The notes beneath the pieces were generated by a model. It searched no databases. It had not been told where the DNA came from and saw only the letters and a program-made list of their open reading frames with translations. DNA of 60,092 nucleotides, filler included, from Malassezia furfur (Eukaryota): the NCBI GenBank assembly GCA_052055015.1. It is 6 parts of 6 records of this genome, joined end to end, with 100 filler letters (N's around TTAATTAATTAA, not from the genome) between each part and the next. Parts side by side here need not be neighbours in the genome. Positions count along the whole stretch, not along the records: positions 1 to 10,139 come from JBQJIT010000403.1; positions 10,240 to 20,224 come from JBQJIT010000405.1; positions 20,325 to 30,269 come from JBQJIT010000406.1; positions 30,370 to 40,298 come from JBQJIT010000407.1; positions 40,399 to 50,202 come from JBQJIT010000408.1; positions 50,303 to 60,092 come from JBQJIT010000409.1. One strand, 5' to 3'. Position 1 is the first letter of the stretch. Each line of letters opens with the position of its first letter. This document shows positions 1,105 through 54,187 of this stretch, piece after piece. The position numbers and the translations under genes were made by a program.

Positions 1105-2535
1105 ATGGACGGCTCGTTGGAGCCGCTGCCCGTCGCGCTATGGGAGCATCCACCGCCGTTCGTATTCAGCGTGCCCGTACAGACGCTCGGGATGGGTGTG
1201 GTGTTTGCGATCGCGACGGTAATGACGGTCAATTTAACGTTTACCGCGCCGTACCACTACCCCCTGAGCAAATGCAACTACATCCTGCAGCTGACCGCGG
1301 CATTTCTGTTCCTCATCACGGTCGCGACGTCACTCTCCATCATGGTTCATACCCTCGCGACGCGCGCCGCACAGGAGCCGCACCTGTTCCCCTACTTACC
1401 CGAGACGCTACCTTCGCGCGACTGGACCCTGGCACAGCAAGTGCTCTTCCTGCTGATGCAGGCGGTTTCGGTCTCGATGGCCAATGTACGTGTCGCGCTC
1501 ACGCAGTTCACGCATATCCAGTTTCTCACGCTGCTCTTTCCTTCGAAGCTCGAGATGCGTCTCATTGTCTGGCTCATGAGCCCCGTCGTCCTAGCACAGT
1601 TTGGCCTGTTCTTTATGTTCTACGTCGAGGACGTCGGCGCCGAGATCCAGGACATATGCGAGTGCACACTGTCGCTGCTGTACACTGCGGCGCTCGTGAT
1701 CTGGGGCACGTTAATCAATCGCCAGCGAGCCTGGCGCCGCGACGGCGCGACGGCGCTGTTCGGCACCGCGACGATCGTCATGGCGCTTATCAAGACGCTC
1801 GTGAGCTACATCCACATGGCCTACGAGGATGCCTACTGGATTTTGCTTGTGTCTTGGGCACTGACTATCTGGCAGAGCTGGCTCGGTTTCTGGTGGTGGG
1901 TGAGTGCGGGAATGGGCATCGGCGAGGTCGAGGACCGCCTGCGGCGCCAGGAGCGCGCACGCAAACGCTACTACAAGCGCCGGTCACGCAAGGCCCGCGC
2001 GGATGCGGCAGCGGCAGCAGCAGCGGCAGAAACAGCGGCAACAGCCACTGCGCCGAACGACGACGCGTCGCAGCAGCTGCTTCTACGCACGCTGCGCACG
2101 CTGCGGCCAGCTGACAGCGAGCATGAGCCGCTTTCGCCAACATCTGCGCCATCCGCAGCATACGACACCTCGGTGCCGGCTACCGACGGCGACATCGACC
2201 CAACGCACTCGACGACCGACCACTCGAGCTCGAACCAGTCGACGTGGGTCAGGCGCGTGCAGCAGACGCTAGGCCGCTTCCTTCCTGCGTCAGCGTCGCG
2301 ACGGATGGAGACACTGCGGCACGAGCACCAGCGTGGCGTGCTGAACGCGGCGCTCAAACAGGTCGACGCGTACCAGAGCGTAGTTACGCGCGCGCAGGCC
2401 GCGCGCGGCCAGGCGCTCCGCGACTTGCGCATGCTCCGGCGCAAGTCGGCGCGCGTTGCGGGTGGTGCCGACGACGCGCCTGAGACGGGTGCGTTTGCGC
2501 GCCTCCGGCGCCAGGACCGCACGACGTACGAATAG
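1105..2535 (+). CDS. RRA1: 7-TM PalH/Rim21-like pH sensor, basidiomycete Rra1 type, copy 1
   Basis: Seven hydrophobic segments followed by an Arg/Lys-rich charged stretch (EVEDRLRRQERARKRYYKRRSRK). In-frame 21-nt intron 1486-1506 (GTACGT..CTCACGCAG) at the same position as the paralog's intron. Confidence 0.72.
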   Translation: MDGSLEPLPVALWEHPPPFVFSVPVQTLGMGVVFAIATVMTVNLTFTAPYHYPLSKCNYILQLTAAFLFLITVATSLSIMVHTLATRAAQEPHLFPYLPETLPSRDWTLAQQVLFLLMQAVSVSMANVRVALTQFTHIQFLTLLFPSKLEMRLIVWLMSPVVLAQFGLFFMFYVEDVGAEIQDICECTLSLLYTAALVIWGTLINRQRAWRRDGATALFGTATIVMALIKTLVSYIHMAYEDAYWILLVSWALTIWQSWLGFWWWVSAGMGIGEVEDRLRRQERARKRYYKRRSRKARADAAAAAAAAETAATATAPNDDASQQLLLRTLRTLRPADSEHEPLSPTSAPSAAYDTSVPATDGDIDPTHSTTDHSSSNQSTWVRRVQQTLGRFLPASASRRMETLRHEHQRGVLNAALKQVDAYQSVVTRAQAARGQALRDLRMLRRKSARVAGGADDAPETGAFARLRRQDRTTYE

Positions 2536-2617
2536 AGATACCCTAGGCACGGTGCAGGTGGAGGCCGTGCACTGACCGCTTTCCTTCGCCAGCGCGCTCG
2601 ACGGCGCGCGGCGTACG

Positions 2618-3921
2618 ATGAGCGAGAATGTAACCATCTACGCGAGCGGCACGCCGACCTTTCCGCGCAGCGTGCCGGTTGAGACGATGTCACTGGGGAT
2701 GATGCTCGCGATGGCGGCCATCATGGCGCTGCATCTCGTGTTTACTGCGCCGTACCACTACCCCCTGAGCCGCCCCAACTTTGTGCTGCAGCTCATTGCT
2801 GCGGTGCTGTTTCTCATCCTGGTCGCAGCTTCCGTTGGCTACATTCTGTGGGAGTTGCGTATGCGCGCGATGCAGGTGCCACACCTGTTTCCGTATCTCT
2901 CGCAACCGATCCCCCCCAAAGACGGGCGATGGACGATGGTGCAAAAAGTCTTTTTCGAGGTGCTGCTCTCGCTCACCGTGTTCACGTCGCACGTACGTCA
3001 CAAAGGCTCACACAGGCGACACACATCCAATTTCTCACACTGCTCTTCCCCTCGAAGCTCGAGGTGTGGCTCATCCTGTGGCTTCTCGTCCCGCTGGTGG
3101 TGGTGCAGTTTGTTACATTCTACTTCAAACTTATTCCGAGCACGAGTATCGCGCAGCCGATCGGCGACGTGATCCAGGACATTTGCGAGAGTACGCTGTC
3201 GCTGCTGTACTCGTTCGCACTCATCGCATGGAGCACGCTCGTCAACCGGCGGCGCGCCTGGCGCATGGACGGTGCAGCGGCACTGTTTGGCATTGCGGCG
3301 CTCGTCACGGCGTTTGGCAAAACGGTCACAAGCTATGTGCACATCCGCTTCGAGCGCGCCTACTGGATCCTCGTGATCTCGTGGGCGCTTACCATCTGGC
3401 AGAGCTGGCTCGGCTTTTGGTGGTGGGTGAGCGCGGGGATGGGCATCGGCGAGGTCGAGGACCGATTGCGGCGGCAGCAGCGCGCACGCCAGCGCTATCT
3501 GCACCGCAAGGAGCAGCGGTACGCGCGACGTGCATCGGCGCGTGCCGATGCCAGCGCTACGACGTCTACACGCGCACGGAGCTCGACGGCGCCTAGCCAG
3601 TCTCCGGGTGCTGAAGGCGAGATGGCGCGCTCGACGTCGTATGCCATGTCATCTGAGGCGCTCCTCTGGATCCTGCGCATGGGTCGCACGGTGTACCGTT
3701 TCCTGCCTGCGGCGATGCGGCGGCGGCTCGACGAGGTGCAGCGAGAGCACGACCGTGCGGTGCTCGAGGCGGCCGTACGGCAGATGGATGTGGTGCAGCA
3801 GGTCACAACGCGCCCCAACATGCTGCACGAGCGCACGCTATTCCATGTGCAGCGTGAAGGGCGGCAGGCGCGTGACGATGATGGCGACCCGAGCGCGACC
3901 TGTGCGACGCAGCGTGTGTAG
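2618..3921 (+). CDS. RRA1: 7-TM PalH/Rim21-like pH sensor, Rra1 type, copy 2
   Basis: Paralog of 1105-2535 (FTAPYHYPLS, THIQFLTLLFPSKLE, identical 33-aa SWALTIWQ..RLRRQ block). A 23-nt intron at 2993-3015 joins the two ORF-track frames. Confidence 0.72.
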
Positions 3922-3934
3922 ACGAGATACCCAG

Positions 3935-4727
3935 CTATGACGATGTACGGAGATAGTCAAAGCGCGACTCGATCGTCTGCTGCAGCTTGGGCCAGATTTC
4001 GTTGCTCGTGCGCCCCGCGAGGTCCACGAGGAGTGGCTGGCTCGGGTCCGAGGGCGCTTGCAACGTGCGGAAGTAGTTGATCATCGGCTCGGTTTTGGCA
4101 TGGAAGGATTCGATGCGCTTGCGGAAGGTCTCTGGGTTGTCGTCTTCGCGCTTTTCGAGTGGCTCGCCGGTGACGTCGTCGACGCCGGGCGTCTTGGGCG
4201 GGTTGTACGAGAGGTTACTGGGTGAGTTTGGCACGTACTATACACGCCCCGACGGGATGTGCGTCCAGCGGTCGAGCACACGCTGCAGAATCACCTCCTC
4301 TGGCACACACAGGTTGACCACGAGCGAGAGCGGGCGGTGCTCGCGCTGGAGCATGTCGTTCAGGAGCGACGCCTGCCCGCTCGTGCGGGGGAACCCGTCG
4401 AGAATCCAGTTGGCGTCGCCCATCTCGTCGAGCTTTTGGCCCACGAGCGCCATCATCGTTTTGTCCGGCATAAGTTTGCCTGCACGAATCACCTCGGTGG
4501 CCTCGCGGCCCAGCTCGGTGCCGTGAGTCGTGTGCCAGCGGAGCAGGTCGCCGGCGGTGATGATCGGCACGCCGTATTTTTGCTCAACCCGTGCCGAGAG
4601 CGTGCCCTTGCCAGATCCCTGCGTCAGTATGTGTACAACGTACCGGGCATCCCATGATCAGCATCCGGAGTCGGCGTGGCCGTGCGGCCGTCGCGAGCGT
4701 GCGCGCACCCAGACCGGCCCGGAGCAT
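3935..4727 (-). CDS. ADK2: Mitochondrial adenylate kinase / GTP:AMP phosphotransferase (AK3 type)
   Basis: Spliced protein MLRAG..LIMGCPGSGKGT (P-loop), WILDGFPR, RWTHIPSGRVYNLSYNPP (LID). Introns 4619-4643 (25 nt) and 4218-4238 (21 nt; stop if retained). Confidence 0.9.
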
Positions 4728-4895
4728 GACGGCGTGTGGAGTCGCCGGTGCGGGTGCGGGGGGGCCGGAGTGCGCATCAAAGATCGGGCAGGTCAGGGCA
4801 GCGGATCGAGATTAAAGCCGCGCAAAAAGAAATCAACGGGCGGTCGGGGGATAAGGGGTCTATTCAGCTATCGTGGGTCGGCCTCCGCGGTGCGC

Positions 4896-10239: not shown

Positions 10240-10538
10240 CACGACGACGTCGGCGGCGGCGGCGGCCCCGGCGGCGCCCCCTGCGTACTCGGCGGCGGCG
10301 CCCGCATCCAAGGGCGACTATGTCGTGGCACTGTACGACTACACTGCGACGGTACGCTACTTCGTGACTGACCCAGGCGGCTGGCGACCTCACCTTCAAG
10401 GCCGGCGACCAGATCGAGGTGGTGCAACGCACCCCGAGCACCGAGGACTGGTGGACCGGTCGGCTGAATGGCGTGCAGGGCGTGTTCCCAGGGTACGTAC
10501 GCGCCGACTCACGCAGCAACTATGTACGCGAAGCCTAA
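10240..10538 (+). CDS. RVS167: Rvs167/amphiphysin C-terminal SH3 domain (5'-truncated)
   Basis: After removing introns 10352-10376 (25 nt) and 10493-10516 (24 nt): [60 protein letters not shown]. Confidence 0.82.
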
Positions 10539-12345: not shown

Positions 12346-12706
12346 ATGGGAGACGCAGCCCCCGGCGCGGTCGGCGCGTCGGACGTGCCCAAGGCGGTGG
12401 TCAAAAATGTCGATATGGACGCGGACATGCAGCAGGAGATCGTCGAGATCGCTGCTGATGCTGTCGTGAAGTTTGCGCTCGAAAAGGACATGGCTGCCTT
12501 CGTCAAGCGCGCCGTCGACGAGCAGTTTGGGCCCACCTGGCACGTCATCGTCGGGCGGAGTTTCGGTAGCTACGTCACGCACGGTACGTCGTTTGCGACT
12601 CACGCAGAATCCAAGTACTTTATCTACTTTTGTGCGTATCCGGGATGCGCGCGCGCGGCTAACCACAGACCTGGGTCCCCTTGCGTTTCTCGTATGGCGT
12701 GCCTAA
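12346..12706 (+). CDS. DYN2: Dynein light chain LC8
   Basis: KNVDM..MQQ, EKDMAAFVK, GPTWHVIVGRSFGSYVTHE..FIYFYLG after removing introns 12584-12607 (24 nt) and 12632-12668 (37 nt). Confidence 0.93.
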
Positions 12707-14207
12707 ACGAGGGTATGTGCATCGATCCACTGTGCCAATTCGCGCCAGCCGCCGCCGACACGTACATGAATGTGGCGCGGATCGACCGAGTGGGCATGTT
12801 CGGGACGTTGCTGCGTAAGCACACACCACACCTCCCACGTACCGTACGTAGCAGTCGACATGCGACGGTTTTCGACAAGAGTGTGTATCGGTGGTATTCG
12901 TCGAGCGCGCTGCCCGTGTCGACGCGCTCGATGGGGATGTTGCGGGCGTTGCAGATACGCGCGACGCCGACGTCCAGCGCGTCGCGCGCGTCGGGCACGT
13001 ACGTCTTGGCCCCAGCGCGCACGGGCCGGGGCAGCTCGCTGGAGGAGAAGCGCGGCCGCAGCGTCTGCATCGACGCAGGCGAGCGCAGCGCGTGGTGCGA
13101 CGCACGCCGCATGCTGGGCGATGCATCGTCGTGTGGCCGCGGATGCGAAAGGCGCGGGAGCATCGACTCTCCCGGCCGCGCCTTGCCGGCGGACGTCGGC
13201 GTCGGCAGCGAGGTGGGCGGTGGTTTATAGTACATACCAGGGGTGACGGGTGAGTTGGGGCTGGTCGCCGCCTGGGGCGATGGCAGCGCGTCGCGGTCGG
13301 CGGACCGCACAGGCCGTGCGCCTGCCACGTCCGCGAGGCGTCCAAAGAAGCGCGGCTCGGTCTGCACGCCGAGCGGCGTCGGCGGCATGGGCGGACGCTG
13401 CAGCGGCGTGCGCGGCAGCTTGCTGGGCGTGTTGTGGGACGCACGGCGGCTCCCCCCCGAATCGCGCGCGCGGCGCTTCTCGCGGGGATAGCGCGGCGTG
13501 TGCAGCGACAGGGTCTGCATCGCTACGCTCACCTCGTCGGCTGCCGGCTCGAGCCGTGGCTGCAAGGCGTGCCAGCGCGCGTGCACGGCATCGATGTGCT
13601 GCGCGACATTGGGCCTCAGCGACATGTACGTGGCCGCGTTGGTGCGCAGCACCGCGAGCACGCGCAGGCACGCCGGGACGTAGTGGGCGCGCCGCGTCTC
13701 AAACACGTGTCGTGCAGTGTCGCGGTCCGACGTCGCGTCCGTGTACTGCTGGAGCGCGGCGTCGAGGGAGTCCATGAGCCGGTGGGCCTGTGAACACACG
13801 TCGTGCAGCACAATCAGCACGCGGTCGGTCTGGAGCTCGGCGAGCGTGGAGGAGACGCGCGCATGCAGCGCATCCCACTCGCTCTGCACGAGTGCGCAGG
13901 CCTTGTCGACGCCTGGCTCGGCGTGCGCGTGCGCTTGGCTGATGCGCCCCGAGGTGAGCCCCTGTGCGGCGATCAGGCGCCCGCTGGCCTCGTCGAGCGC
14001 CAGGAGCAGCGAGCTGGTGCTCGTTTTCGCGCGGTGCTCGGCGCTCGGTGCGCGCTCCCACATTACGGCGTGTTCCTGCCGCATCTCCTCGACGACGAAC
14101 AGGGCATCGCGCACCGCATCGAGCGCGTCGCTTGCGCCCAGCACGGCCTCCCAGCCGGCCTGGGTCTGGTCCATGCTGGGCGCCTCGCGAGCGGCCAGTG
14201 CGGCCAT
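12703..14207 (-). CDS. GAS2/GAR-domain protein with helical N-terminus (microtubule-binding type)
   Basis: Removing intron 12811-12842 (32 nt) restores the GAR signature ..DALDVGVARI..CRLLRT..HVRVGGGWRELAQWI..*. Confidence 0.78.
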
Positions 14208-14257
14208 CGTCACAACAAACCCTTCTCCACACGCGCCTCCACTGCAGGGCCTGCGGA

Positions 14258-17017
14258 CTACGACAGCTGGGACCAATCGACGGCAGGCGCGCGCCATGCG
14301 CGGTGCGTGGTGTGCCCGAGGCTCGTGAGGTGCCGCATCGTCGGGCGGCCGTGGGGACAGTTCCACGGCTGCTCAATCTCGCCCATGTGCTGCACCACCT
14401 CGCGCATCTGCCGCGCATTCAGCGCCGAGCCGACCATAATGCTCTTGCGGCACGCCCGGCTCGCGAGCATGTCGCGGATCTTGGAGCACCGGATACGCGT
14501 ATGGCTCGGCGCCTCTCGTAGCGCATACAGAAGTTCCTCGAGATCGTGCACATCAAACACCGTGTCCTTGGACATGGGCTTCGACCAGAGCCGCACACGC
14601 CGCCCGGGCGCCTGCGCCTCGTCGACGTCGATCTCAAAACCGTTTTGCTTGAGCCAGTCGGCGTGCTCCGCGGCGACCAGCTCGTCGCTCGGCGCGAGCT
14701 CCAGCACCTGCGGGCGGATCAGCCGCTGGCTGTGGATACGCGTGTCGCGCTGCAGCCGCTCGAAGTTGTATTTTTCGTCCGCCGCGTGCTGGTCGATGAT
14801 GAACAGGTCGTCCATCGTCGGCGTGCCACGCGCGCCTCCCACCTGCCGCCGTGCGATGATGAACCCAAGGTTGAACTGGCCGACGATGCGCATCTGGGCA
14901 AAGTCGGTTTTGCGAATGACGCGCTCCAACGCATGCGACGCGCGTGTCGTGTCTTGCTCTTGCACACCGGCCGAGTCGAGGGCATCGGAGGCGACGGGCG
15001 GGGCGTGCGCAGGGGGGCGCGACGATGCAAGACGCACGCCGAGTGCGCCGACGTCCACCCTGAGGGTATAGGTGGGGGAAGGTGGAGGCTGCTCCGGTGC
15101 CGAGGCGTCTGACGCGGGGGCCGCCTCGGCTGCGGACGCTTCTGCTGGAGGCGGCGGCGATGAAGGGGCCTGGGGACTTTCGCTGCGCGTTTCTGGCATT
15201 TCGGTGTGCATCACTTGGGACGCCAGCTCGTCCTCCTCGTCCTCGCTCTCTGCATACACCACGTCGTGCACCGGCACCTGGGTCCGTGGGGCCGTGCGCC
15301 GCGGCATGGGTGAGGCCGTCTCTGCATCGCTCTCTGCGCTGCTCGATTCGCTGGCCTCTTCAAGCATGTCGTCATGCTCGTCGTCATGCTCGTTGTCATG
15401 CTCGTTGTCATGCTCGTCGTCATGCTCGTCCTCGTGCTCGTCGTGCTCCTCGTCGTCCCCGGCCACGGGCGCATCTGCCTGTACCCGTGCAAACTTTTCC
15501 ACGGCACGGCGGAACTGGGCGCGGATTTCAGACGCAGGGGCCTTGGCGGGCGACGGCGCCTCGCGGCGTGGCTCGCGGTGCGGCGACCAGGACGCCTGGC
15601 GCGTCGAGACGCTCAGGGTGGTGCGTGGGGCCTTGGAGGCGGACGACGTCGGTGAGCTCGGCCGCTTAGATGGCGTCTGGAGGGGCTGACGCGGCGTGGG
15701 CCGCGGTGGGGACCTCGGCACGTCTGCTTGGGCAGTCAAGAAGGGAGGCGCCGGGGCGGGCGAGGCGGGCTCGTCCGACGGTGGTTCGTGGGCCGCTACC
15801 ATTGGTTCCACTGGCACGGATGACGCCTCGTCGTCCACCGCCGGTGCTGTACGCCTGTCGCTGGGCTGGTCGCGTGGCGTCGGCGTCGGGGGGTCGCTCG
15901 GTGCGTTTGCTCCTGGCCCGTGTACTTGAAGCACGCCGCGTGTCGGCGCAAAAAAGGCATCGAGCGCGTCCTGCGTTAGTCGACGACGTACGCGAATGGT
16001 CTCCAGCAGCGCCGCTTCGTGGTGCACTAGGATCGTGCGCTTGTCCGGGCTGACGTTCACGTCGTACTGGTCGGTGGCCACCTCGAGGTTGGCGACGACG
16101 CACGGGTACTGCGCGACGTTGTAGTTCTTGTACACCTGGTTAAACACCTGCGCCAACTTGCGAGCGTCCCACGGCCGGCGGTTCACGTAGAAGTATTGCC
16201 GGTCGCCGCTGCTGCGCCCCGCGCCGATGGTAGGCTTCGACACAAGCCCCGCGACGCGCAGCGGTACGCCCTCGATCTCGATGTCGAGTGCGAGCGGGAG
16301 GAGCGACTCGGTCGCACGCGTGCCAAACAGCGCCGCCATGTTGGCCTGCAGGTAGCGCTCGCCGTCGGCGGCGCGCAGGGTGAGCTGCGTGGTGCGTTTG
16401 CTGGGTCAGGGGCCGACGTACCCGTTGGCGAGGATCACGCTCGATGCCCAGCGCACGCCCGGTGTGATCAGGGCGTACGCCTGGAGCATGGCGTGCGCCT
16501 TGTTGTACTCGCGCTTGATGTTGCGCTCGAGCTCCTTGCGGCGCACCGGAAACTGCTGGAGCAGCTCGGTGACGGTGACGGTGGTGCCGCGCTGGCGTGC
16601 GACGCGCTTGTCGCTCGACGTGAGCACGCCGTGTGTGTCGAACTCGAGCACGGTACCCATCGGTACCTCGCGCTGCGTCGCCGTCAGCACCGAGACGTGC
16701 GCGACGCCGCACAGCGACGCAAGCGCCTCGCCGCGGAAGCCGAGCGTGGTGACGCTCTGTAGGTCATCGAACGACGTGAGCTTCGACGTGTGGTGCTTGA
16801 GCGCGAGCGTCGCGTAGTCTGCGGGCGCGACGCCCGTGCCGTCGTCGAGCACCTCGATGCCGGCGAGGCCGTACTCGCGGAAGCGCACCTCGATGCTGCG
16901 TGCGCCAGCATCGAGCGCATTCTCTACGAGCTCCTTCACGGCGGCGCGCAGGTCGGGGACCACCTGCGCGCTCGTGATGCGCTGCACGTCCGTGCGCGCA
17001 AGCGGCGCAATGCTCAT
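14258..17017 (-). CDS. PMS1: MutL-alpha mismatch repair endonuclease Pms1/PMS2
   Basis: KELVENALDAGA, TLGFRGEAL, DVNVSPDKR, GQFNLGFI, DQHAADEKYNFE, ASRACRKS, WNCPHGRP. Introns 16401-16421 (21 nt, in-frame TGA) and 15971-15991 (21 nt). Confidence 0.95.
15368..15448 (-). repeat. 12-bp tandem repeat encoding (EHDD/EHDN)n in the Pms1 linker
   Basis: About 6-7 copies of gt(c/t)gtcatgctc on the + strand. Confidence 0.85.
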
Positions 17018-18928: not shown

Positions 18929-19358
18929 CTACGCCTTGGACACCTTGGCAAGGTTGCGGTGGGGCTGCGGGTCGACCGATGCGACGCGGTCCAGCAGCTT
19001 GGCGACCAGCTTGTCCGTCTTGGAGTCGAACGCGCGCTTGATGTCGTCGAGCTGCTGCTGGGTGTTCTTGTCGAGGGTGCCCTGCTCCTTGGTCTGCGAG
19101 CCCTCAAACTTCTTCTGGAACTCGGCGATCGCCGCGTCGTTCTTCTGCTTGAGCGCGGCAATGTCCTTTTCCGCCTCGCTCTGGGCGTCCTTGAGCTTCT
19201 GCGTGCGGTCTGGGTCAGTGCGCGCGGCAGACGTACAGGCACGCGCCTTCTCAACGATCTTGGACGCCTCCTTCTCCGCCTCCAGAAGCGTCTGGATTCC
19301 CTGCGACTTCTGAGCGACCTGTGCGGTCAGCGTGCGCCGTGCGCCGCCCACGTACCAT
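18929..19358 (-). CDS. VMA10: V-ATPase V1 subunit G
   Basis: M|VAQKSQGIQTLLEAEKEASKIVEKARAY|RTQKLKDA. Introns 19319-19355 (37 nt, after an ATG-only exon) and 19210-19236 (27 nt). Confidence 0.93.
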
Positions 19359-36955: not shown

Positions 36956-37806
36956 CTACATAGCCAGTTTCTCGAGCACCTTATTCGCGAACAACACGCC
37001 GGCGACCGAACATGTCACCCAGAAAAGGATCCGCCACTTGGACTTGGCGTTTTGTGCAGGCTCCGGCGCCGGCGTCTGCGGCGCGGCGTCCGACGCCGGC
37101 GGCGCCGGACTGGCAGACGGGGCGTCGGACGCTGGGGCGGACGCGCGCTTTCCCGGAGCCTTGGTCGCGGCAGGCGCGGGCGCGGCGGGCGCAGCGGCCG
37201 GTCGCGACATGTTCGGCAGGTCCTTGGCCACTGGGCCCGTGTATTCAGGGAACAGCTGGGTGAAGCGCCGCTGGCGCAGATTGTATGCGTGCGACTGCGC
37301 CGCCAGCAGACGACGCTCGCGCGCCGAGACGAGCACGGAGCCGGTGGTCAGCTCGTCGGTGCACATGAACGACAAGAGTCCAATCAATCTGCGTGAGCAT
37401 GTGGCAGGCGACGTACATCGACGACACCGACCATGCTGGATTCCAGCTGCCGGGGTGGAAATCACTCATCGACGTGCAGATGCGGGTGTCCGGCTGGAAC
37501 CGGCCGCTCGGCGTCTGTACTTTGATACCGCTGTATTAGTTGCTTCCACGTACGGCGGCTTGAAAGGATAGTCGCCCGGGAAGAGGAGCTGGCCCCAATA
37601 CTCGCCGCCCTCGTACGGCGTGCCTGGTGGGCCACGCAGGATAAAGTGCCTTGGATGAGCGGGGCACGTACCATTCCAGGATATTGTCCTCCCGCGGCCG
37701 CGCATAACACAGCGGCGGCGGGTCCTTTTCCATCAACACGGCCTCCTTGCCGAGCTGTGTGAGCAGCTTCGCGACCTACTCGCTTCGACGCTGCCTTGGT
37801 CGCCAT
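36956..37806 (-). CDS. UBC6: ER tail-anchored ubiquitin-conjugating enzyme
   Basis: [59 protein letters not shown]-terminal TM. Introns 37755-79, 37650-71, 37531-53, 37389-37416. Confidence 0.93.
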
Positions 37807-37871: not shown

Positions 37872-38866
37872 ATGGCGTTTGGACAGAAAGGACCGGGCCG
37901 GCCGCGCGGGCGTCCGCCGAAGGATCCAAACGCGCGCGCATATGCTACGGATGATCGCGCATATACGAAGCGTAAACTTGACACCGTAGGCGGCAGCGTG
38001 CTCGACCCTGTGCTGGCACGGCAGAGCGTCGACGATGTCGAGGCGGCTCTGCAGCAGGTGCGGTCGCAGTACGAACAGAACATCGACGAGCGCATCGCCC
38101 AGGCGACGCGAGAGCGCGAAGCGATCCAGGAGCAATTCGACAGGCTCAAGGAGCTGCGTGTCACCCAGAGCGAAAAGACGCTCGTGGAGTGGAAGCGTGC
38201 GAGCGAAGCACGGCAGCGGCGTACGTGCACCCTCCTACTGACCCCAGACATGACCGAGTCACTCAACGCGTGGAAGCAGCGCGCGGAGCACGCGGAACAC
38301 CGGCTACGCGAGCTTGAGCGCGAAGAGGGCGCGGGACCCAGCGCATCTGCGCCGAACCGGCGCGTGCAACAACTCGAAGACGAAGTTGCACGACTCACAG
38401 AGAAGCTGGCCACAACACAACGGGAATTCGACGCGGAGACCAAACGTGTGGCGGAGCTCGAGCAAGCGCCATCCCGCGCGACGAACGACGAGCGTGCCGT
38501 GCGGCGATTGTACGAGGACCTGACTGGGTTTTTTATTAGCGACGTGGAAGTCTACGACACGGCCCATGATCTGCATCGTTTCCGCTTCCTATTTACGAGT
38601 GCAGGATATCATGGCATGTACACTCTAACTGACAGACAGACCTGCAATTCACCCTCGAGGAGTCGCAGCTCAAAGTGACCCCACGCGTGGGGACTTCAGC
38701 GGACGTGCGTGATGATCTAGTCTATATCCCCCACCTGGACGAGGAACGCGATGCGGCCCTACTCGATTCGCCCACGATGCCAAGCCACTTTTTGGAACAG
38801 ATTCGATTCGAGCGAAGCGCCGCACCCAGATTCCTCACGGCGCTGCAGAAAGGACTGAAAAAGTAA
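37872..38866 (+). CDS. CSM1: Monopolin subunit Csm1/Pcs1 with N-terminal AT-hook
   Basis: Coiled coil, then LYEDLTG..I, L.F.L, YIPHLDEERD..L..P..F.EQIRF..A.RF. Introns 38221-38247 (27 nt) and GC-AG 38614-38639 (26 nt). Confidence 0.78.
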
Positions 38867-40398: not shown

Positions 40399-41951
40399 TG
40401 CGGAGGCGCCGGCGCCGGTGTGGGGGTGGTCTCTGCCGCCGTCGGATGCGGCTGCGGCTGCGGCTGCGCAGCGCCGCGCGGCGAGTCGGTATGCGCCTCT
40501 GGCTCGCACGCAATGTGGCGCACCCATGCGCCGACCGCACCGAGGTAGCCCTCGTGCCGGAGGAAGTAGGCACGGCGGCGCCCTTGGCTCCAGAAACGAA
40601 TGGCGTACGACAGCGTCGAGATGGTTGCCTGGTGCCCACGGATGAAGCACCCGCCGAAGTAGACGCGGTCGAGCTTGTACTTTTCCGCGTTGAGGTGCGC
40701 AATCTGCCCGATGTTGTTGCTGATCGCATAGAGCAGGCTGCGGCAGATGTCCTCCTGACGGAAGCGCGCGCGGCGGCGGGCGGACTCGTCGGCAGGTGCG
40801 CCGTGGTGGTCGTCGTCGTCGCGGTCCCAGCGGAACACCTTGCCGAAGCTCGAGGCAATGGTGGATGCCTTGAGCCCGAGGTGGTCGAGGCCGACGGCGC
40901 CGTAGATGTCGCCGACGAGCATGTCGACGTTGTTGTTGTTGCCGCGCGCACACATTTCGAGCATTTCGTCAAAGTTGCGCGCGTCGGTGAGCAGGCCGAG
41001 CAGGCCCCAGAGCGTGCCGCCGCCGAGCGACGTGCCGCTGACGCGCTCAAAGTGCCCCGACTCATCGACCTTGAGGATGCTGACGCCCGACCCAATGTTC
41101 ACGAGGAGGCACGGCAGCTTGGGCGACGGCTCGCTCTCAAACATCGGCTGGTACAGCGGGGGCTGCGGCGAGGGGCGCGGCATGTCCTCGGTGAACGAGC
41201 TTGGCATGCTCGAGTCGCCGCGCGGCACGGTGCTGCTCGTGAGCTGCTTGTACATTTCGTAGAACTCGTCGACCTGCTGGTCCGAGTACCAGAACACCTC
41301 GTCTGGGATGAGCGTCATAAAGTTGAGGCCCGTGATGAGGCACTGCATCTCGTCCTCCTTGAGTACCTCGATGCCCAGCTCGCGCTCGAACAGGTCGTAG
41401 AAGAGGTGCGCGCCGCCGCCCGTCGCCATGAGCTTGACGCTGCGCCGCATCTCGGCGAGGTCGACGCCGTTCGTGCGCGCGCTCTGCGCAATGAGCTCGT
41501 GCAGGAAGCGCACGCACGACTGGATGTCGCCGGTCTCGAACTTGACAAAGTTGAGGCGCCCGCCGGGGAAGTGGTCCGGGAGCGAGCGGCGGCGCAGCTT
41601 GCGTGGGTCGAACGACGAGGCGAGCGACGCGGGGTGCGCGGCCGCCGCGCCGTCCTGGCGGAGCAGCGCAGCGGGGGCGAGCGTGCCCTGTGGCACGGGG
41701 TGCTCACGGTCGGCCTGCGCGAGCTGCGGGCTGGTGGCACTGCGCGACGCATGCGTGAAGTAGACGACCTTGGCGAGCGACCCCCCGATGTCGACGGCGA
41801 TGTGCGACACCGACTCGATGTAGTTCGGGAGGTAAATGTCGTGGCTGTCGCCTACGGGCCGGTTGGCGTGCGGCAGCTCGTCGTCGATGATGCGCGCCCC
41901 ATGCGTGGTGAGGGAGATGTCCACCGGCACCGCGCTCGGCGGCTCAAACAT
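40399..41951 (-). CDS. CAB1: Type II pantothenate kinase (3'-truncated)
   Basis: AVDIGGSLAK, ATGGGA, EDEM.CLI.GL, LVNIGSGVS, GTSLGGGT, VDMLVGDIYG, FLRHEGYLGA. Confidence 0.94.
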
Positions 41952-42036: not shown

Positions 42037-44076
42037 ATGTCGGGGTACAAGTACGATGACGAGGGCGGGCAGTTCTTCACGTTCGCCCTGACCGCCGTCG
42101 TGGCATTCCTTGTGCCGTACACGTACAAGACGCTCTTCTCGCGCGTGCGCAGCGTCGCGCACGGATGGCTCGACCGCCGCGGACACAAAACGCGCACCGC
42201 CCAGCGCCTGATGCGCTCGTCGTGGGCGCGCACCGCGGCCAAGGGCGCCGTGCTCGTCGCGGGCTGGGCGCTCGTCGCGTACCTCGTGCGCAGGATCGCG
42301 ACCGCGGCAAAAAACTCGACGCACGCCGTGTACGATCCGTTTGCGATCCTCGGCATCGCCGCCTCGGCGACCGAGAAGGAGATCCGCCGCCGCTACCGCA
42401 AGCTCAGCGTGCAGTTCCACCCGGACAAGCTGCGCAACGTCGCGAACCAGACCAAGGAGGAGATCGATGCGCACTACATCGAGCTCACCAAGGCGTACAA
42501 ATCGCTCACCGACGAGACCATCCGCAAGAACCTCGAGCTGTACGGCCACCCCGACGGACGCCAGGAGATGTCGCTCGGCATCGCCCTGCCGACGTGGATC
42601 GTGGATAGCCAGAACAGCGCCTGGGTGCTCGGCGCGTACGGCCTCGTGCTCGCGATCGGCCTGCCGCTCCTCGTCGCACGCTGGTGGTACGGCACGCGCG
42701 CACGCACCAAGGACGGTGTGCTGAATGCGACCGCGCTCAACTTCTTCACCTCGCTGAAGAAGGACATGCGCCGTGCCGAGATCTTTGCGCTGCTCGGCCG
42801 CACCGCGGAGCTCACGACGTATGCGGCGCAGCTCACGGCCGCGGACGAAGCGGCGTACGACGCGCTCGAGAAGGAGACGCGCGCGGTGTACCAGCGGCTG
42901 CACGGCCACGACGTCGTGCACGACGGCATGCCCGTGCGTGTGCGCCGCGCGACGGTGCTGCTCGCCGCGTACTTGCACCGCGTCGCGTCGCCCAACGCGC
43001 ACGTGGAAGAGGGTACGTCGCCCACTGACGCAGTGAAATACGCCATCGGCCACTACACCGACAAGTTGCTCACGAGCCTGCTGGCGATGAGCTCGGCGCA
43101 CCGCCGCCTCGAGCAGACGTCGGTAGTGCGCGACATGATCCCGTGCGTTGCGCAGGCCGTGCCGGTCGAGGGCGGCAGCCTGGCCGAGATCTGGCAGCTG
43201 CCGCACATGACGCTGCCGCTCGCCGAGGCGCTGCTGCAGCACGAGCCGGTGGCCACGCGCGGCCTCCAGGGGCTGTGGAAGGTGCCGGACGCGGAGCGCC
43301 GCAAGACGCTCGTCGGCGACGGCAAGCTCACCGACGCCGCGTACCAGGAGCTGGTCCGTGCGCTGGGCGAGTGGCCGCGCATCGAGCTGGTGGACGCCTA
43401 CTTCACGGTGATGGGCGAGGAGCAGGTGACCGCCGGCGCGCTCATGCAGCTCGTGGTCAAGGTGCGCCTGCTGCCGCTCAAGCGCGACGGCTCGCTCCTG
43501 CGCGACGGCCGCCGCCTCGACGCCAAGGACAAGGCGAAGGAGAGCCACGTGCGGCCGGGCACGGAGGAGTTCGCGCAGGACCCGATGCAGGACCCGCACG
43601 ATGGGAAGCGCACGATGGGCGTCGCACACGTGCCGCACTTTGCCGAGGAGCGCAAGCCGCACTGGTTCGTGCAGATGGGCGACCACAAGAACGACCACCT
43701 GATCATTGCGCCGACCAAGTTCACCGACCTCGACACCAGCGAGCTGCGCACCGTGCGCATCAACGTGCAGGCGCCGGCAGAGCCGGGCGTGTTCACGTTC
43801 ATGGTCAGCATCACCTCGGACTCGTACCTCGGCTCGTCGGCGTCGCAGCTGCTCAAGTTGCGCGTTGAAGAGGCACCGGTCGTCAACGAGGACGACGAAG
43901 ACGACATTTCCGACCCAGAGGAGGATACCATTGCGGGCCAGATGGCGTTGATGCGTGGCGAGCGCGTCAAGCCGGCGGCCGTGTATGCCGAGGACGACGA
44001 TGAGGAAGAGGAGGAGGAGGAGAGCGACGAGGAGGAGAGCGACGACGATACCGACAGCGATAGCGACTCTGACTAG
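42037..44076 (+). CDS. SEC63: Sec63 translocon J-domain subunit
   Basis: YKYDDEG.FF, J domain with HPD, YGHPDG, GIALP, Sec63 domain, acidic tail. In-frame 21-nt intron 43013-43033. Confidence 0.95.
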   Translation: MSGYKYDDEGGQFFTFALTAVVAFLVPYTYKTLFSRVRSVAHGWLDRRGHKTRTAQRLMRSSWARTAAKGAVLVAGWALVAYLVRRIATAAKNSTHAVYDPFAILGIAASATEKEIRRRYRKLSVQFHPDKLRNVANQTKEEIDAHYIELTKAYKSLTDETIRKNLELYGHPDGRQEMSLGIALPTWIVDSQNSAWVLGAYGLVLAIGLPLLVARWWYGTRARTKDGVLNATALNFFTSLKKDMRRAEIFALLGRTAELTTYAAQLTAADEAAYDALEKETRAVYQRLHGHDVVHDGMPVRVRRATVLLAAYLHRVASPNAHVEEGTSPTDAVKYAIGHYTDKLLTSLLAMSSAHRRLEQTSVVRDMIPCVAQAVPVEGGSLAEIWQLPHMTLPLAEALLQHEPVATRGLQGLWKVPDAERRKTLVGDGKLTDAAYQELVRALGEWPRIELVDAYFTVMGEEQVTAGALMQLVVKVRLLPLKRDGSLLRDGRRLDAKDKAKESHVRPGTEEFAQDPMQDPHDGKRTMGVAHVPHFAEERKPHWFVQMGDHKNDHLIIAPTKFTDLDTSELRTVRINVQAPAEPGVFTFMVSITSDSYLGSSASQLLKLRVEEAPVVNEDDEDDISDPEEDTIAGQMALMRGERVKPAAVYAEDDDEEEEEEESDEEESDDDTDSDSDSD

Positions 44077-44131: not shown

Positions 44132-45743
44132 CTACGACTCTGCATACTGCTGCTGGATCGCCGCCTGGTTCTTGGCGCGCCCGGCCGCACGCTTGCCCGA
44201 CTGGAAGCGCTGCACCATCTCCTTGGCGACCGCCTCGGGGCGCTGGCCGAGGAAAAAGCTGGGGAACGGCGTCGTATCGTCCGCGACGCTCGGCGGCTTG
44301 GGCCACGTCGTCAGCGCAGGATACAGGCACAGCTTCGACAGCGAGGCGGGCGGCGCTGCGTGAGTCTTTCCACGTACCATAGGCGCGCGGCGTATGCGCC
44401 GCGGCGGTCAGCACCGCGTGCTTCGCGAGCGGCGGCGCTTCGGTCGGCGCGTCGGCCACCGGCGCCGTGCCGGCGAGCTGCGCAAGCGCCTCGCCGGGCA
44501 GCTCGCACGGCGTGAGCTGCTGGGCGTCCACCGTGAACGCACGCAGCGCGGGGCCCTCGGCCATGCCCGGCCGGTCGTCCGTGGCCACGTAGAGGGTATG
44601 CGCGGCGGCAACGTACGCAACGCTCAGAATCGGCGCGTGCACATCGTACAGGTACACGTTGTCGAGCGTGTGCGTCGTGGCCAGCTCGGCGAGCGGGACG
44701 AGCGCCAGGACCGAGGCGCCTTCCCACGTGAGCAGCACCTGGTCGTCGGCGACACGCAGCAGGTGCGTCAGGACGAGCGGCGCGGGGTCCATGGCCTCCT
44801 CGCCCTCCTCGCCGTCGGTGCGCTTGCGCTTCGGCGGCGGCTTGGCGGTCGGGTCAAACGCGTCGCGCAGGCCGAGGTTGCTCGCCGCGCGCTCCCTGCG
44901 CCGCTCGACGTCGGCATCGACGCTGACGTACTTGCGCAGCGCCGCGGCGTCGAGCGTCACGACCGACTGCGGGCCATACGACCCATCCTCCGCCTGCGTC
45001 CAGACGCGGAGGAGGTGCCCGCCGTCCGCGGACACCAGCGTGTCGCGCTCGGCGAGGTGCGCCGCGCGGGCGTCGGCGGCGGCGAGCGGAAGCAGCGCGC
45101 CGACAAAGCTCGACGAGCCGAGCAAGTACTGCGTGACGATGTGCCCCGCGCGGCGCGGGCCCCAGCGCGAAAGGCGGATGTGCTCGTCGCGGTCTGCACT
45201 GACGATCTGCTGCGGGAGGGGCGCGCCCAGGAACGCCAGGCAGGTGACCATGCTGACGTGCCCAAGGCGCGGCTTGACCACGGCCTCTGCCGGGTCCTCC
45301 TCGGCGGCGTCCGGCAGGGCAGCGGGCGCCACGGAGGCGTCCACGGGCCAGCTCCAAACGTCGCCGAACTTGTCGGCGACGACGACTTCTTCGCCGAGCG
45401 TGCCGTTCAGGTCGTAGTGCGTCCACTGCAGCGTGCCCGCGCGCTTGGCGAGGCGCTGGCGCACGACCTCCTTGTCGCGCGCCATGTCGGTGGTGCGCCA
45501 CACACGCAGCGTCTTGTCGTCCGACGCGACGGCGACAAACGTCTCGCTGGGCGACAGCGCACACAGGCGGGGGAACGCCGCGACGGTGGCATCGCCCGGC
45601 GAGCCCGCGTCGATGCGCGCATCGAGTGCGGCAAGCAGCTTTCCGCTCGCACGCTCGTACAGCACAAGATTGGCGCCCGTGAGCGCAACAAGGTACCGCT
45701 CCGACGCGTCCAACGCGTGCACCGGCAGCGGCGCCAAGCTCAT
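44132..45743 (-). CDS. TRM82: tRNA m7G46 methyltransferase WD40 subunit
   Basis: KRA..L, ADKFGDV, LGHVSM.T, SADRDEHIR.SR. Intron 44356-44377 (22 nt). Confidence 0.87.
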
Positions 45744-49140: not shown

Positions 49141-50202
49141 CTATGGCGTCACGTCGCTGCCCCACGCTGTGTACATCAGCACACTGAACGCACGCAGCTC
49201 GCGCGACTCGGTGATCGCCTCGACGTACTCGTTCGGCGACGTGTTGAAGGCGACTTGCGCCTGCAGCGCCACGAGCGGCAGCACGCGCGCGAGCTCGAGC
49301 GGCTTCTCGGCCGCCAGCACCCGCGCACGATGCCGCGCGTCGGCCGTGCCGTGCAGCAAATCGTCGGGCGTCGACTGCACGCCAAAGGACGGCGCCAGGT
49401 GCTGCATGAGCAGCTCAAACACGCGGTCGCACGACACGCGAAACACGCGCGCAAAGTCGGGCGAGTCGATATAGTCCTTGGTCTCGTCCAGGAGCGACCG
49501 TAGCTGGGGCGTCAGCACCTCGTCCGTCGGGGTATTCGGCAGGATGGCACCCGCATTCGCGAGCATCGCACACTCGTCCTCCATGTGCTCGGGCAGGAGC
49601 AGGTTGCGGAAACCGTGCTTGCTCAGGAACGCCTCGCTCGGCGCGTGCGCATCGCTGGCCTCCGCGTGCTCGAGCCGCTCGCGGATGCGGTCCATCGCGC
49701 CCTGGAAGTGATGGTAGGTCAGGATGGTGCGCAGCGGCATCTCGCCGATCTCGGCCTGCACCGCGTGCTGCACGCGCGCCGCAACCGTCTTCCAGCCGTG
49801 GTGCAGGAACCAGTAGGAGGAGGTGAGGTACTTTTTCTCGGTATCCTGGTCGAGCAGCGCATTGCCGACGGCGTCGTCATCGTCGGTCAGCAGCTGCGGA
49901 TTGATGTGCAGGTTCGAGGCATCGTGCAGCGCAATGTGGTGCTTCTCCGTCTCGCCGCGGTCGGTCTGCGTGTCGCGGAACTCGTGCTTGGCCTGCGACT
50001 CGAGCGCCGCAAGGTATGCACGCCGCCCAATCATGTTCAGCTGGATGTGCGTCTGCAATGCGAGGAACACGAGCGTGTAGAGCGTCGTAAACGTGCGGGA
50101 AAACGACTGCAGCTTGATTTCGTTCCAGAGCCGCAGCTTCGCCTGCCGCCGGTCCTCGTCTGAGGGCGCGGGCGGCGCGGGTGCGGGCGCGGGCGCGGGC
50201 GC
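49141..50202 (-). CDS. PEX3: Peroxin Pex3 (5'-truncated)
   Basis: KLRLWNEIKLQSFSR, IQLN.IGR, YLT.SYWFLH.GW, LLDETKDYIDSPDF. Confidence 0.9.
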   Translation of the reverse strand, partial: APAPAPAPAPPAPSDEDRRQAKLRLWNEIKLQSFSRTFTTLYTLVFLALQTHIQLNMIGRRAYLAALESQAKHEFRDTQTDRGETEKHHIALHDASNLHINPQLLTDDDDAVGNALLDQDTEKKYLTSSYWFLHHGWKTVAARVQHAVQAEIGEMPLRTILTYHHFQGAMDRIRERLEHAEASDAHAPSEAFLSKHGFRNLLLPEHMEDECAMLANAGAILPNTPTDEVLTPQLRSLLDETKDYIDSPDFARVFRVSCDRVFELLMQHLAPSFGVQSTPDDLLHGTADARHRARVLAAEKPLELARVLPLVALQAQVAFNTSPNEYVEAITESRELRAFSVLMYTAWGSDVTP

Positions 50203-50302: not shown

Positions 50303-51977
50303 GCGACACGGACGCAGCGCGTGCGCGCCGCTCGACCAACGGTGCCGCTGCTGGCTGCGGGCCCGCCGATCCCGAATGCGCCGCCGATGGACGGCGCGGC
50401 GCAGTCGGACCTCGCCGCGCTCGGCGTGGCACCGGCCGAGGAGGAGATGGACTGGGCATCGGTACGTGGCCTGACTCACGACGCAGCTCAACAACGACTA
50501 CTGCGAGACATGCCATGGGCATGGCCGCTTCCTGTGCTGCGACGGATGCCCGCGCTCGTTCCATTTTGCGTGTGTGAACCCGCCGCTGGACGTGGACGAG
50601 ATGCCCTTCCCGAACGGGACGCTGCTGCCGAAGCGCAAGGGCGATGCGAAAAACGACCCGCGCGCTGCACGCGCCGACGCAGACGACAGCTGGTTCTGCC
50701 AGGTGTGCTTTGCGGCACGCCTGCCGCCCAAGCCGGTGCGCAACGCCGGGCCGTTTGGCGTCCTGGTGCAAAAACTCGAGCGGGAAAACCCGAGCATCTT
50801 TGCGCTCCCCGCCGAGCTGCGCAACTACTTCAAGGGCGTGTCTACCGGCGCGGACGGCGCGTACGTCGATAGCACGTCGCTGCGCCCGCTCAAGCTCTCG
50901 CGCCACGGCTTTGTCGAGGAGCGCGACGCCTTCCAGCTGCGCGACAAGCACGGCGAGGCAGTGCTGTGCTACCAGTGCGGCGGCTCGGCGCTGCCGATCG
51001 CCGACGTACTCCCACCGGGTGCCGCGCGTGCGCCGACGCAGGCCGAGGAGCTCGAGGCGCTCGAGACGCTTGCCGACGCCGCGCTCGCTGCACAGCAGCC
51101 GCCACGCGCACCGCCGCACGGCCGCCGCATGCTGTCGTGCGACTTTTGCCATCTGCACTGGCACCTCGACTGCGTCGACCCACCGATGCAGACCATGCCG
51201 CCCACCACGCGGCGGTGGAAGTGCCCGGCCCACAGCAGCCACGCCGAGCCACGCGTGCGGATACCCCGCGCGGCGAACCAGGTGAAGACGGTGGACGTGC
51301 CGCTCGCGACCGCACCGCCGCCCGCCGCCCGCCCGCCACGGCCGCTGGGTGAGGTCGAGGTGCTCGCCGACCCCAACGACCGCTACTTTGACCACGAGAG
51401 CGGCAAAGGCCACTCGTCTGAGCCGCCGTACGACGAAGTCACGGTGAGCAACTCGAACGGGACACGCCTTCGATACCGGATTCCCGAAAAGACCATCCGC
51501 CTCGAGTTCTGGAGCCGCGCGGCGCTCGAGCGTGCACAGCACGCGCGCCGCGCCGCAGCAGCGGCACCGTCTACGACCCACACACCGCACGCGCCCTTCC
51601 CGCATGCGCCACCCATCGCGCCCACCGCGCTTGATCGGCTCGTGGCCGTGGCGCTCGGCGAGGCGCGTGCCCCACCGCACGAGGCGCCGGCGGGCGAGGC
51701 CCGCACGCCCGAACACCTCGCCCAGAACGCCGCGGCAGCCCACGCGTCGCTCGCACCGAACGCGACGCCGTTTGACGGCGCGATGCGCTCAACGTACCGC
51801 GCAGACGAGGCGCCGCCGCTCGCGCCGAGCGCGCGGCACGACGCGCCACCGCCGCCGCCCGTCGCCGAGCCGCTCACGTACGTGTACCCCTCGGAACTTG
51901 GCGAGCTGCGCGCCATCAAGCGCATGCTCACCGCCAAGGGGCCCGAGCGCGTCCGCGCATTTTTGCAGGAGTCATAG
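50303..51977 (+). CDS. RCO1: Double-PHD finger protein, Rco1/Cph1 type (5'-truncated)
   Basis: After intron 50462-50486 (25 nt): NNDYCETC..GRFLCCDGCPRSFHFAC.NPPL..WFC..C, NP.IF.LP..LR.YF, second PHD CDFC.LHWHLDC.DPP..WKCPAH. Confidence 0.82.
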
Positions 51978-52862: not shown

Positions 52863-52907
52863 CGCTACGCGTGTCACGTGGCGAAAACAACACGGAGCGC
52901 CTCCACC

Positions 52908-54187
52908 ATGACCACGCGCCGGCAGAGTGCGTCGAGCGCGACGCGTACGGCGCGCGTGAGTGTGTCGCCCGGCAGCAAGAGTCTGTCGCACCTGTCCCCG
53001 AAGCGCGATGCGCTTAAGCCCGTGGCGGAGCATGACGAGACGGAGAGCAATGCACAAGACACAATCCGCGCAACACAGAGGTACGTGCGGCCTCCACGCT
53101 GACGCAGTCTGCTTGCGACGCTCGAGACGCCGTCGTCGAGCGCTCAAAGCTCGCTCGGCCTGCATATGCTGCGCGAAAAGCTCGCGCAGTATGCTGCGAG
53201 CGAGCAGCAGCCGATCGTCGACGAAGGGCTCCGGCTCGACTGGGAGCTGTACAACGACGTCGGCGGTGCGCTGGAGCAGGAAGAGGCGCTGCTGCTGGTA
53301 CGTGCCCAGCTGACCTCCAGGACTATTTCCGGAAGCTCAAGTTTATCTATCTTGAGCAAGAGACCAAGCTGCGCTTCCTCGCGGATCTGCAGGACGACCC
53401 CGAGACCGGCCAGGAGCCACAGATCCTGTCGGCGGCCGACGTTGCACAGCGCGAGCACGACTGCCGCCGCGTCAAGCAGCAGCTCGTGGAGGCGAAGCGG
53501 CGAGTGCGTGACCTGCGTGAAGAAATTGACGAGCTTGCTGCGGCGCTGGCCGAGCCGTGGGCCGCGCTCGAGGATGGCGCACGTGAAGCGAAGCAGCTCA
53601 TTTCCGAGATTTCCGACATGGAGCTCGAGCTGGCGCGCAGCAAGGCCGCCGAGGGCACGCAAGGCGCCATGACCACGGCCGAGGCGGAGGCGCTGTGTGA
53701 CGAGCAGATCGTCGAGATGCAGACGTTCGACGATGATACCACCCACAAGACACGCGAAATGGAGCAATGCAAGCGGGAGCTTGCCGAGAGCCTGCGGCAC
53801 CTCGAGAGACTCAAGGTCGAGCGGAGTGCCGCGGAGAAGCTCGCAAACGAGGCGCAGCTCGGCGCCGGGCGCGACCGCGGGCGCGACTGGGAGATGGAGC
53901 GCGTGTGTGCACGGCACCAGTCCATGCTGGACCACCTGCACGAGACGCTCGCGCTGCAGGCGCTGCGTGCGCCGTCCGCGCACGAGCTGGAGCTGGTCTT
54001 GGCGCCGCACGGCACGACGCTGCGGCTCGCGTTCGACGAGCCGGGTGGCGCGCTGGTGCAGTACGCCGTGGAGGACGCGCACGGCGAGGCCATAGACCTG
54101 TCCAAGGACACGCTGGCGTTTGCCGACGCGGCGCTCGCGAGCAACTTGCCCGCGGCGCTGGCGCAGCGGATCTGGCAGGAGGTGTAG
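52908..54187 (+). CDS. SOS7: Kinetochore protein Sos7 (Kre28/Zwint-like)
   Basis: After introns 53081-53107 (27 nt) and 53298-53320 (23 nt): DYFRKLKFIYLEQETKLRFL (Sos7 motif) and a long coiled coil. Confidence 0.75.

Follow-up and report, generated by a model that had tools for sequence, protein, structure and literature searches.

The window analysed here, a 60,092-nucleotide stretch of Malassezia furfur DNA (G+C content 66%) in which six contigs are linked through N spacers, contains numerous very short predicted spliceosomal introns, and the present analysis concerns their identity, their lower size limit and the recognition geometry that this limit may reflect. The host genes encode, among others, adenylate kinase, PMS1/MutL, SEC63, MCM2 and the ribosomal proteins L27 and L35Ae (Table 1). 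Near one end of the window lie two tandem paralogs (1105-2535 and ~2618-3921) encoding multi-pass membrane proteins, which we take to be PalH/RIM21-like; they have no Pfam match and share one intron position. The assembly comprises 13.7 Mb in 1,856 contigs, and because many of its loci are present in two copies with 84-90% identity between copies, it is considered to carry two subgenomes. Homeologs were taken from an all-against-all comparison and include the pairs L001/L002, L104/L105, C1/C14 and C8/C15 as well as window positions 20325-30223 against C12, and a 20-kb DNA search found no second copy of window positions 1-20000.

Predicted introns and their signals

A motif scan of the window returned 53 matches, 39 of which measured 14-30 nt; for this size class, 30 Markov simulations gave an expectation of 0.9. 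Genome-wide, the donor-branch-acceptor motif occurred 4,798 times versus 113 for a reversed control, and its strict form occurred 248 times versus 8 in the control within an 860-kb sample consisting of the window and 800 kb of the largest contigs (approximately 6% of the assembly). A gene finder that combines a codon model with splice matrices, allows introns of 13-150 nt and uses no length prior called 57 introns in the window, including 50 at a score of at least 13.5 (25 of them at ≤25 nt) and 48 at a score of at least 14, hereafter termed high-score. This rebuilt set of 48 introns (minimum 21 nt, median 25.5 nt, 24 at ≤25 nt) is close to the 52 introns of the initial annotation, for which a minimum of 21 nt, a median of 25 nt and 28 introns at ≤25 nt had been given. 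In the 860-kb sample, 701 introns were called and 494 were high-score, with a median of 24 nt, a mean of 28.9 nt, a mode of 22 nt and 405 of the 494 at ≤30 nt. These introns are predicted from sequence; their median falls below the value of about 30 nt that delimits ultra-short-intron lineages such as ciliates, myxobolids and microsporidia. By extrapolation, both subgenomes together would hold about 7,900 high-score introns, 14% of them 21-mers.

The signal layout proposed in the initial annotation was recovered in the 50 window introns with a score of at least 13.5: the donor was GTACGT in 35, the branch motif CT(G/C/A)AC was present in 43, its distance to the final triplet was 1-4 bases in 46, and the acceptor triplet was CAG in 45 and AAG in four. 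All 50 end in AG, and 49 start with GT and one with GC. The branch profile is RCTNAY with a free position -1 (C in 35%), and donor information stops at +6, with +7 to +9 mixed. U12 introns possess a long donor consensus with AT-AC or GT-AG ends, and the end of the donor information at +6 argues against a U12-type assignment. In the 860-kb sample, a run of six pyrimidines precedes the acceptor in just 26 of 454 introns of ≤40 nt, so that the absence of a polypyrimidine tract, also proposed initially, holds. Position +4 is C in 325 and A in 19 of 460 introns of the same sample, and the donors of 21-22 nt introns are at least as consensus-like as those of longer ones.

Reading frame, homology and subgenome pairs

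The reading frame could be tested for 83 of the 248 strict matches; the other 165 were dropped because of a close neighbour, an edge or a weak coding signal. Removal restored the frame in all 53 testable introns whose length is not a multiple of three, and read-through fitted none of them (0/53), while the remaining 30 testable cases are multiples of three (3n) and uninformative in this respect. Since 21-mers keep the frame, homology is needed to test them. The five 21-mers of the initial annotation, at 1486 (+), 4218 (-), 15971 (-), 16401 (-) and 43013 (+), were confirmed at these sites with a putative branch A at position 16, the sixth base from the 3' end, and all five correspond to exact 7-residue insertions relative to homologs or a paralog, two of them carrying in-frame stops. 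The SEC63 segment (43013) is missing in 18 of 19 aligned homologs, chosen among 120 matches listed, and three of its seven residues differ between M. furfur lineages whose identity is otherwise 96%. The window SEC63 shows 96-99.9% identity to public M. furfur proteins, and a metagenome scan for SEC63 relatives returned one distant locus. The PMS1 segments are missing in 15 of 17 homologs (15971) and in 15 of the 16 covering the site (16401), the 17 having been chosen out of 89, and the exceptions that keep a segment are M. furfur-like read-through calls. The adenylate kinase segment (4218) creates an in-frame TAG, and the spliced form matches six of seven homologs without a gap. The 1486 segment aligns with the 23-nt intron at the same site of the tandem paralog. 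Adenylate kinase calls on assembled contigs from other Malassezia-like genomes (P0229-P0234) cross the 4218 site unbroken, and this intron may be absent in those species.

The subgenome comparison covered ~70 kb of paired sequence and 39 motif rows, a few of which are nested duplicates or chance matches. Intron ends are kept in both copies in 37 of the 39 rows. In the 27 same-length pairs, donor positions 5-6 and the branch C, T and A are 93-96% identical, the spacer positions 8-12 are 48-59% identical and the flanks are 87% identical. In the other 10 of the 37 rows, the length differs between subgenomes, always by a non-multiple of three, and no copy is shorter than 21 nt. Frame, homology and subgenome pairs agree, and the segments behave as U2-type spliceosomal introns in the size range of ciliate introns, as initially proposed. 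Small size is the only feature that would suit removal without the spliceosome, by an endonuclease and a ligase as in tRNA or HAC1 splicing; with GT-AG ends, a U2-complementary branch motif, thousands of copies and sequence-free spacers, such a process is extremely improbable.

Another possibility, which is judged unlikely, is that a large share of the stop-free 21- and 24-mers is removed inefficiently or retained, so that proteins often gain 7-8 residues. No in-frame stop is present in 89 of 142 3n introns and in 47 of 69 21-mers, and 3n introns show no clear excess of stops (53/142, 37%, versus 91/309, 29%; p = 0.10); failed splicing of a 21-mer would thus mostly add seven residues rather than a decay signal. 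In Paramecium, stop-free 3n introns have been purged. By the same stop test, a purge of this kind is not clearly seen here, and a length dip at 24 nt is absent from the motif scan and mild in the gene finder calls. Very short microsporidian introns are spliced at a median of ~25%, and some public models keep the segments. However, the insertions are missing from annotated homologs, the SEC63 insert varies between lineages, spacers drift faster than flanks, the shortest introns have strong donors, and the segment-keeping models are gene-caller output and do not count as evidence of retention. One public M. furfur PMS1 model keeps both 21-mers; of the public M. furfur SEC63 models, one removes the 21-mer and two keep it; for adenylate kinase, the junction is correct in one public model, whereas three others (two from M. 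furfur and one from M. brasiliensis) splice out too long a segment, a false intron that costs five conserved residues. Introns of 21 nt leave the frame intact, and gene models misread them. The public Malassezia models P0122, P0211, P0213, P0228, P0235 and P0236 either read across 21-nt introns as coding sequence or contain a false intron of greater length.

The 21-nt floor

The proposed floor of 21 nt held in the larger sample: none of the 494 high-score calls is 19 or 20 nt long, none places motif A at position 14 or 15, and three are shorter than 21 nt. After GTAYGT donors in 460 kb, motif A was found at position 14 in no case, at 15 in two, at 16 in 32 and at 17 in 34, with controls of ~1. 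Exactly five bases follow A in 319 of the 494 calls. The wall at position 16 is the same whether five bases (69 introns at 16) or at least six (20 at 16) follow A; being independent of the bases after A, it indicates two separate minima, 16 and 5, which add up to the floor. This division into two minima goes beyond the initial annotation.

It is very unlikely that the search motif itself created the floor, a reading that has been largely refuted. The strict pattern of the 248-match scan is unable to match introns shorter than 19 nt, and the splice matrices were seeded from it. However, patterns of 14-20 nt occur near control level, with 99 matches versus 84 for a relaxed 14-20 nt pattern and 15 versus 8 genome-wide for a strict 15-20 nt pattern, which covers GTAYGT donors and a one-base gap only; moreover, the gene finder recovered 59 of 59 introns that had been shortened in silico to 16-20 nt. 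Ten of the 15 strict matches fall within introns of 21-24 nt whose consensus donor lies shortly before the match, and in one the frame is open straight through. Coding candidates of 16, 18 and 20 nt on L030, L055 and L095 were rejected, as they read as protein (with presumed family labels).

Two further features were observed in the window. A 7-nt exon (29320-29326), kept in the other subgenome, separates two introns of 26 and 24 nt. In the intron at 29441-29463 (-), four bases follow motif A in both subgenomes, which could be a rare exception or could mean that the branch point lies elsewhere.

Table 1. Predicted introns and motif matches, in window coordinates except for the last row. M, motif scan; G, gene finder; S, subgenome comparison; P, Pfam; H, homolog alignment.
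Position (strand)	Length (nt)	Gene	Evidence and remarks
1486..1506 (+)	21	membrane protein, 1105-2535	paralog alignment; phase 0
2993..3015 (+)	23	tandem paralog	M, G, paralog alignment; position as 1486
4218..4238 (-)	21	adenylate kinase, lid region	P (ADK), homologs; in-frame TAG on read-through
4619..4643 (-)	25	adenylate kinase	M, G
10493..10516 (+)	24	probably untranslated or partial gene	M only; no gene finder call; motif match
12584..12607 (+)	24 by motif		M, G; gene finder prefers 32-nt form ending 12615
12632..12668 (+)	37		M only; motif match
12811..12842 (-)	32		M, G; 16-nt sub-match nested
15971..15991 (-)	21	PMS1/MutL	H; no stop
16401..16421 (-)	21	PMS1/MutL	H; in-frame TGA
17171..17192 (+)	22		M, G; putative branch A at 16
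17989..18012 (+)	24		M, G
19210..19236 (-)	27	V-ATPase G	M, G, P
19319..19355 (-)	37	V-ATPase G	M, G, P
19597..19638 (+)	42	symplekin/PTA1-like	M, G, P
19754..19784 (+)	31	symplekin/PTA1-like	M, G, P
19945..19983 (+)	39	symplekin/PTA1-like	M, G, P
21613..21635 (+)	23	ribosomal L27	M, G, P; 24 nt in other subgenome
24143..24164 (-)	22		M, G; kept in other subgenome
24541..24562 (+)	22	CCDC124-like	M, G, S, P
25877..25902 (-)	26	FAD oxidoreductase	M, G, S, P
26588..26610 (-)	23	FAD oxidoreductase	M, G, S
26800..26821 (-)	22	FAD oxidoreductase	M, G
26935..26966 (-)	32	FAD oxidoreductase	M, G, S
27632..27654 (-)	23	zinc-finger gene	M, G, P
27894..27979 (+)	86	ribosomal L35Ae	G, P; longest high-score call
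28109..28157 (+)	49	ribosomal L35Ae	M, G, S
28336..28369 (+)	34	ribosomal L35Ae	M, G, S
29115..29146 (-)	32		G (score 13.9); GTAAGT donor, AAG end
29294..29319 (-)	26		M, G, S
29327..29350 (-)	24		M, G, S
29441..29463 (-)	23		G, S; exception to the 5-base rule
30699..30723 (-)	25		M, G
31240..31267 (+)	28	metallophosphoesterase	G, P; AAG end
32000..32030 (+)	31	metallophosphoesterase	M, G
32448..32477 (+)	30		M, G
32556..32581 (+)	26		M, G
35200..35228 (-)	29	MCM2	M, G, P
35525..35550 (-)	26	MCM2	M, G
35788..35811 (+)	24		M, G; 20-nt sub-match nested
36148..36181 (-)	30/34	antisense to called gene	M only; doubtful motif match
37389..37416 (-)	28		M, G
37531..37553 (-)	23		M, G
37650..37671 (-)	22		G; putative branch A at 16, AAG end
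37755..37779 (-)	25		M, G
38221..38247 (+)	27		M, G
38614..38639 (+)	26		G; GC-AG candidate
41484..41517 (+)	34		M only; doubtful motif match
43013..43033 (+)	21	SEC63	H; no stop
44356..44377 (-)	22	WD40 gene	M, G, P
49167..49228 (-)	27 by motif, 62 by gene finder	EF3-like ABC gene	M, G
50462..50486 (+)	25	PHD gene	M, G, P
53081..53107 (+)	27	Sos7-like	M, G, P
53298..53320 (+)	23		M, G; putative branch A at 16, 7 bases after
L024 8843..8859 (-); L093 349..365 (+)	17		perfect donor-branch-acceptor match

Spliceosome components and the size limit

U6 possesses a canonical ACAGAGA box in two identical copies and U2 a canonical GUAGUA, with one match only against two for U6; changed recognition boxes in either RNA were therefore discarded as an explanation. 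The branch motif RCTNAY is complementary to the U2 GUAGUA of this genome. A loss of the U1 small nuclear ribonucleoprotein (snRNP) or U2AF, suggested in the initial annotation, found no support in the two proteins that were tested: U1-70K gave two matches above the Pfam cut-off, and U2AF-large is present, its match lying below the family cut-off and its start being lost at a contig edge. In the reduced spliceosome of Cyanidioschyzon, the U1 snRNP is lacking and U1 proteins are lost; the U1-70K matches place M. furfur outside this type. The METTL16 family is represented by two strong PF05971 matches (E 7e-53 and 2e-51), and the METTL16-family gene has its own 21-nt intron in both copies, the U1-70K locus having several of 23-28 nt. 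In the METTL16-loss donor class (Parker et al. 2023, PMC10581693), METTL16 would be absent where donor position +4 is not A. With a METTL16-family gene present although few introns have A at +4, M. furfur would not fall in this donor class, and METTL16 loss was rejected as the cause of +4 C.

The U1 small nuclear RNA (snRNA) was not found with the Rfam model, which scored 41 of 173 candidates, or with pattern searches, and given these numbers and a fragmented assembly the miss shows little. A candidate with a compensating G on G000:C111 proved to be an intron donor of a ubiquitin-conjugating-enzyme-like gene read on the opposite strand, and five other candidates had no Rfam U1 match. The donor hexamer is nearly palindromic, so that U1 patterns match donors. 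At L086 ~1480-1510 (-), GTACGT donors read on the reverse strand resemble the U1 5' end and form a trap for U1 searches in the genus.

Based on these results, the elements are very probably ordinary U2-type GT-AG introns that have shrunk against a hard two-part size limit. Their layout consists of the donor hexamer, a neutral spacer of at least five bases, RCTNAY with its A at position 16 or beyond, and an acceptor at least five bases past the A. The intron would be recognised across its own length, U1 and then U6 occupying positions 1-6 and U2 pairing with positions ~11-17, and a nearby YAG could be chosen without a pyrimidine tract. The lariat loop would measure ~16 bases. Sixteen may be the shortest donor-to-branch span on which both helices can be formed, and a steric limit for the joint donor and branch helices is the most likely meaning of this number. 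The back-to-back arrangement of the U1/U6 and U2 sites envisaged in the initial annotation would hold provided that branching occurs at the motif A. In a compact genome, pressure towards deletion may trim spacers to this wall, and deletions stopping there would make lengths pile up at 21-23 nt.

It is possible, although a good deal less probable, that the introns are real and the limit stems from a remodelled early spliceosome with a diverged U1 snRNA, possibly carrying a G opposite +4 C, and with trimmed SF3b or branching factors, U1 and U2 standing side by side or acting in turn. In its favour, neither the Rfam model nor either of two pattern searches retrieved the U1 snRNA, whereas U2 and U6 gave good scores; +4 C dominates, the A complex of humans spans 79-125 nt of RNA, and the N-termini of Stentor Cwc25 and Isy1 are altered. 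On the other hand, the Rfam search for U1 covered 41 of 173 candidates, and U1-70K, U2AF-large, the METTL16-family gene, U2 and U6 all look ordinary. The two explanations are compatible and both can hold; only tentatively can a remodelled major spliceosome be proposed in which a fixed ruler (16 + 5) operates, +4 C is read through a changed U1 snRNA or U6 partner, and METTL16 is kept.

Several points weigh against shrinkage of ordinary introns to a hard limit. Splicing and the branch point are inferred from sequence, and the splice matrices derive from the initial annotation's own motif. The subgenome pairs were selected through a motif found in one copy; this tends to raise conservation at the motif positions but does not account for the low spacer identity. 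Only four bases follow A in four of the 494 high-score calls. Among the 15 strict sub-floor matches, two lie upstream of coding regions and remain as candidates, and the last two are one 17-mer in a leader region, identical across both subgenomes; an 18-mer candidate is in frame spliced or unspliced. The dominance of C at +4 sits beside a canonical U6 and a METTL16-family gene, and a canonical U1 would not pair with +4 C, which is why the U1 snRNA miss matters. Stentor manages with a branch A at position 10, so the 5' minimum of 16 would be lineage-specific and not universal. The 17-mer, one copy of which is at G000:C2:48843-48859, adjoins, on the upstream side, the start of a secreted-peptidase-like gene and is the best remaining candidate for a sub-floor intron.

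Short introns in Malassezia, taken as known in the initial annotation, are genus-wide and partly in print. In M. sympodialis, the curated mean is 30 bp over 5,350 introns, 5,271 of which (99%) are supported by RNA-seq (Zhu et al. 2017, PMC5389616), similar to the high-score mean of 28.9 nt in M. furfur. M. restricta introns have a median of 30 and a mean of 37.2 bp (PMC9241646), unlike the median of 24 and mode of 22 found here, and its annotators set the intron minimum down to 20 and 15 (PMC9241646, PMC6473144). A review mentions 'very short introns' in Malassezia (PMC7426719), and automated annotation of M. globosa gave introns of 76-79 bp (PMC4634964). In the accessible parts of the open-access literature, with most subscription papers lying outside, no statement of a 21-nt floor or of branch geometry was found for Malassezia, and the length curve in Figure S8 of PMC5389616 may show the minimum. 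Term searches within PMC8476143, PMC3560662, PMC5654937, PMC12862383 and PMC10581693 yielded nothing further on either. Short introns at the level of the genus are therefore already known, and the sharp 16 + 5 limit seems to be undescribed.

The introns of Stentor coeruleus are 15-16 nt long, AU-rich and nearly uniform in length, without a branch consensus (PMC9505925). They resemble those of M. furfur in the five bases after the branch A and in the conserved U2 and U6 recognition sequences, and differ in that the branch A lies at 10-11 rather than 16 and that M. furfur has a strong branch motif and a length tail. In Yarrowia lipolytica, which has no pyrimidine tract, two bases separate the branch motif from AG, equal to five after A, and introns average ~270 (PMC2483917); only the 3' module is thus common to both fungi. 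The equal 5-base minimum in Stentor and Yarrowia suggests a general second-step limit. Trichomonas type B introns (23-25 nt, T-rich spacers, branch site fused to the acceptor; PMC12316389) are similar in size, but there are 24 per genome as opposed to thousands in M. furfur. Myxobolid and dicyemid introns (median 22-27 bp; PMC13644364) share genome-wide ultra-short size and a compact host-associated genome, whereas their splice motifs are weakened and those of M. furfur are strong. In one nucleomorph, introns measure 18 nt. Recent lists of ultra-short-intron lineages, as far as their available text extends, leave out Malassezia, including PMC13644364 with no mention of the genus.

How the spliceosome handles introns of ~20 nt is an open question, and work on it has centred on ciliates and parasites. 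For M. furfur, tools for transformation and CRISPR have been published, with which the sharp 16 + 5 limit is testable base by base. If a remodelled ruler proves true, M. furfur would have the shortest introns on a genome-wide scale among fungi that can be cultured and transformed, and roughly one thousand 21-mers, of which two thirds are stop-free, would be at risk of annotation as protein.

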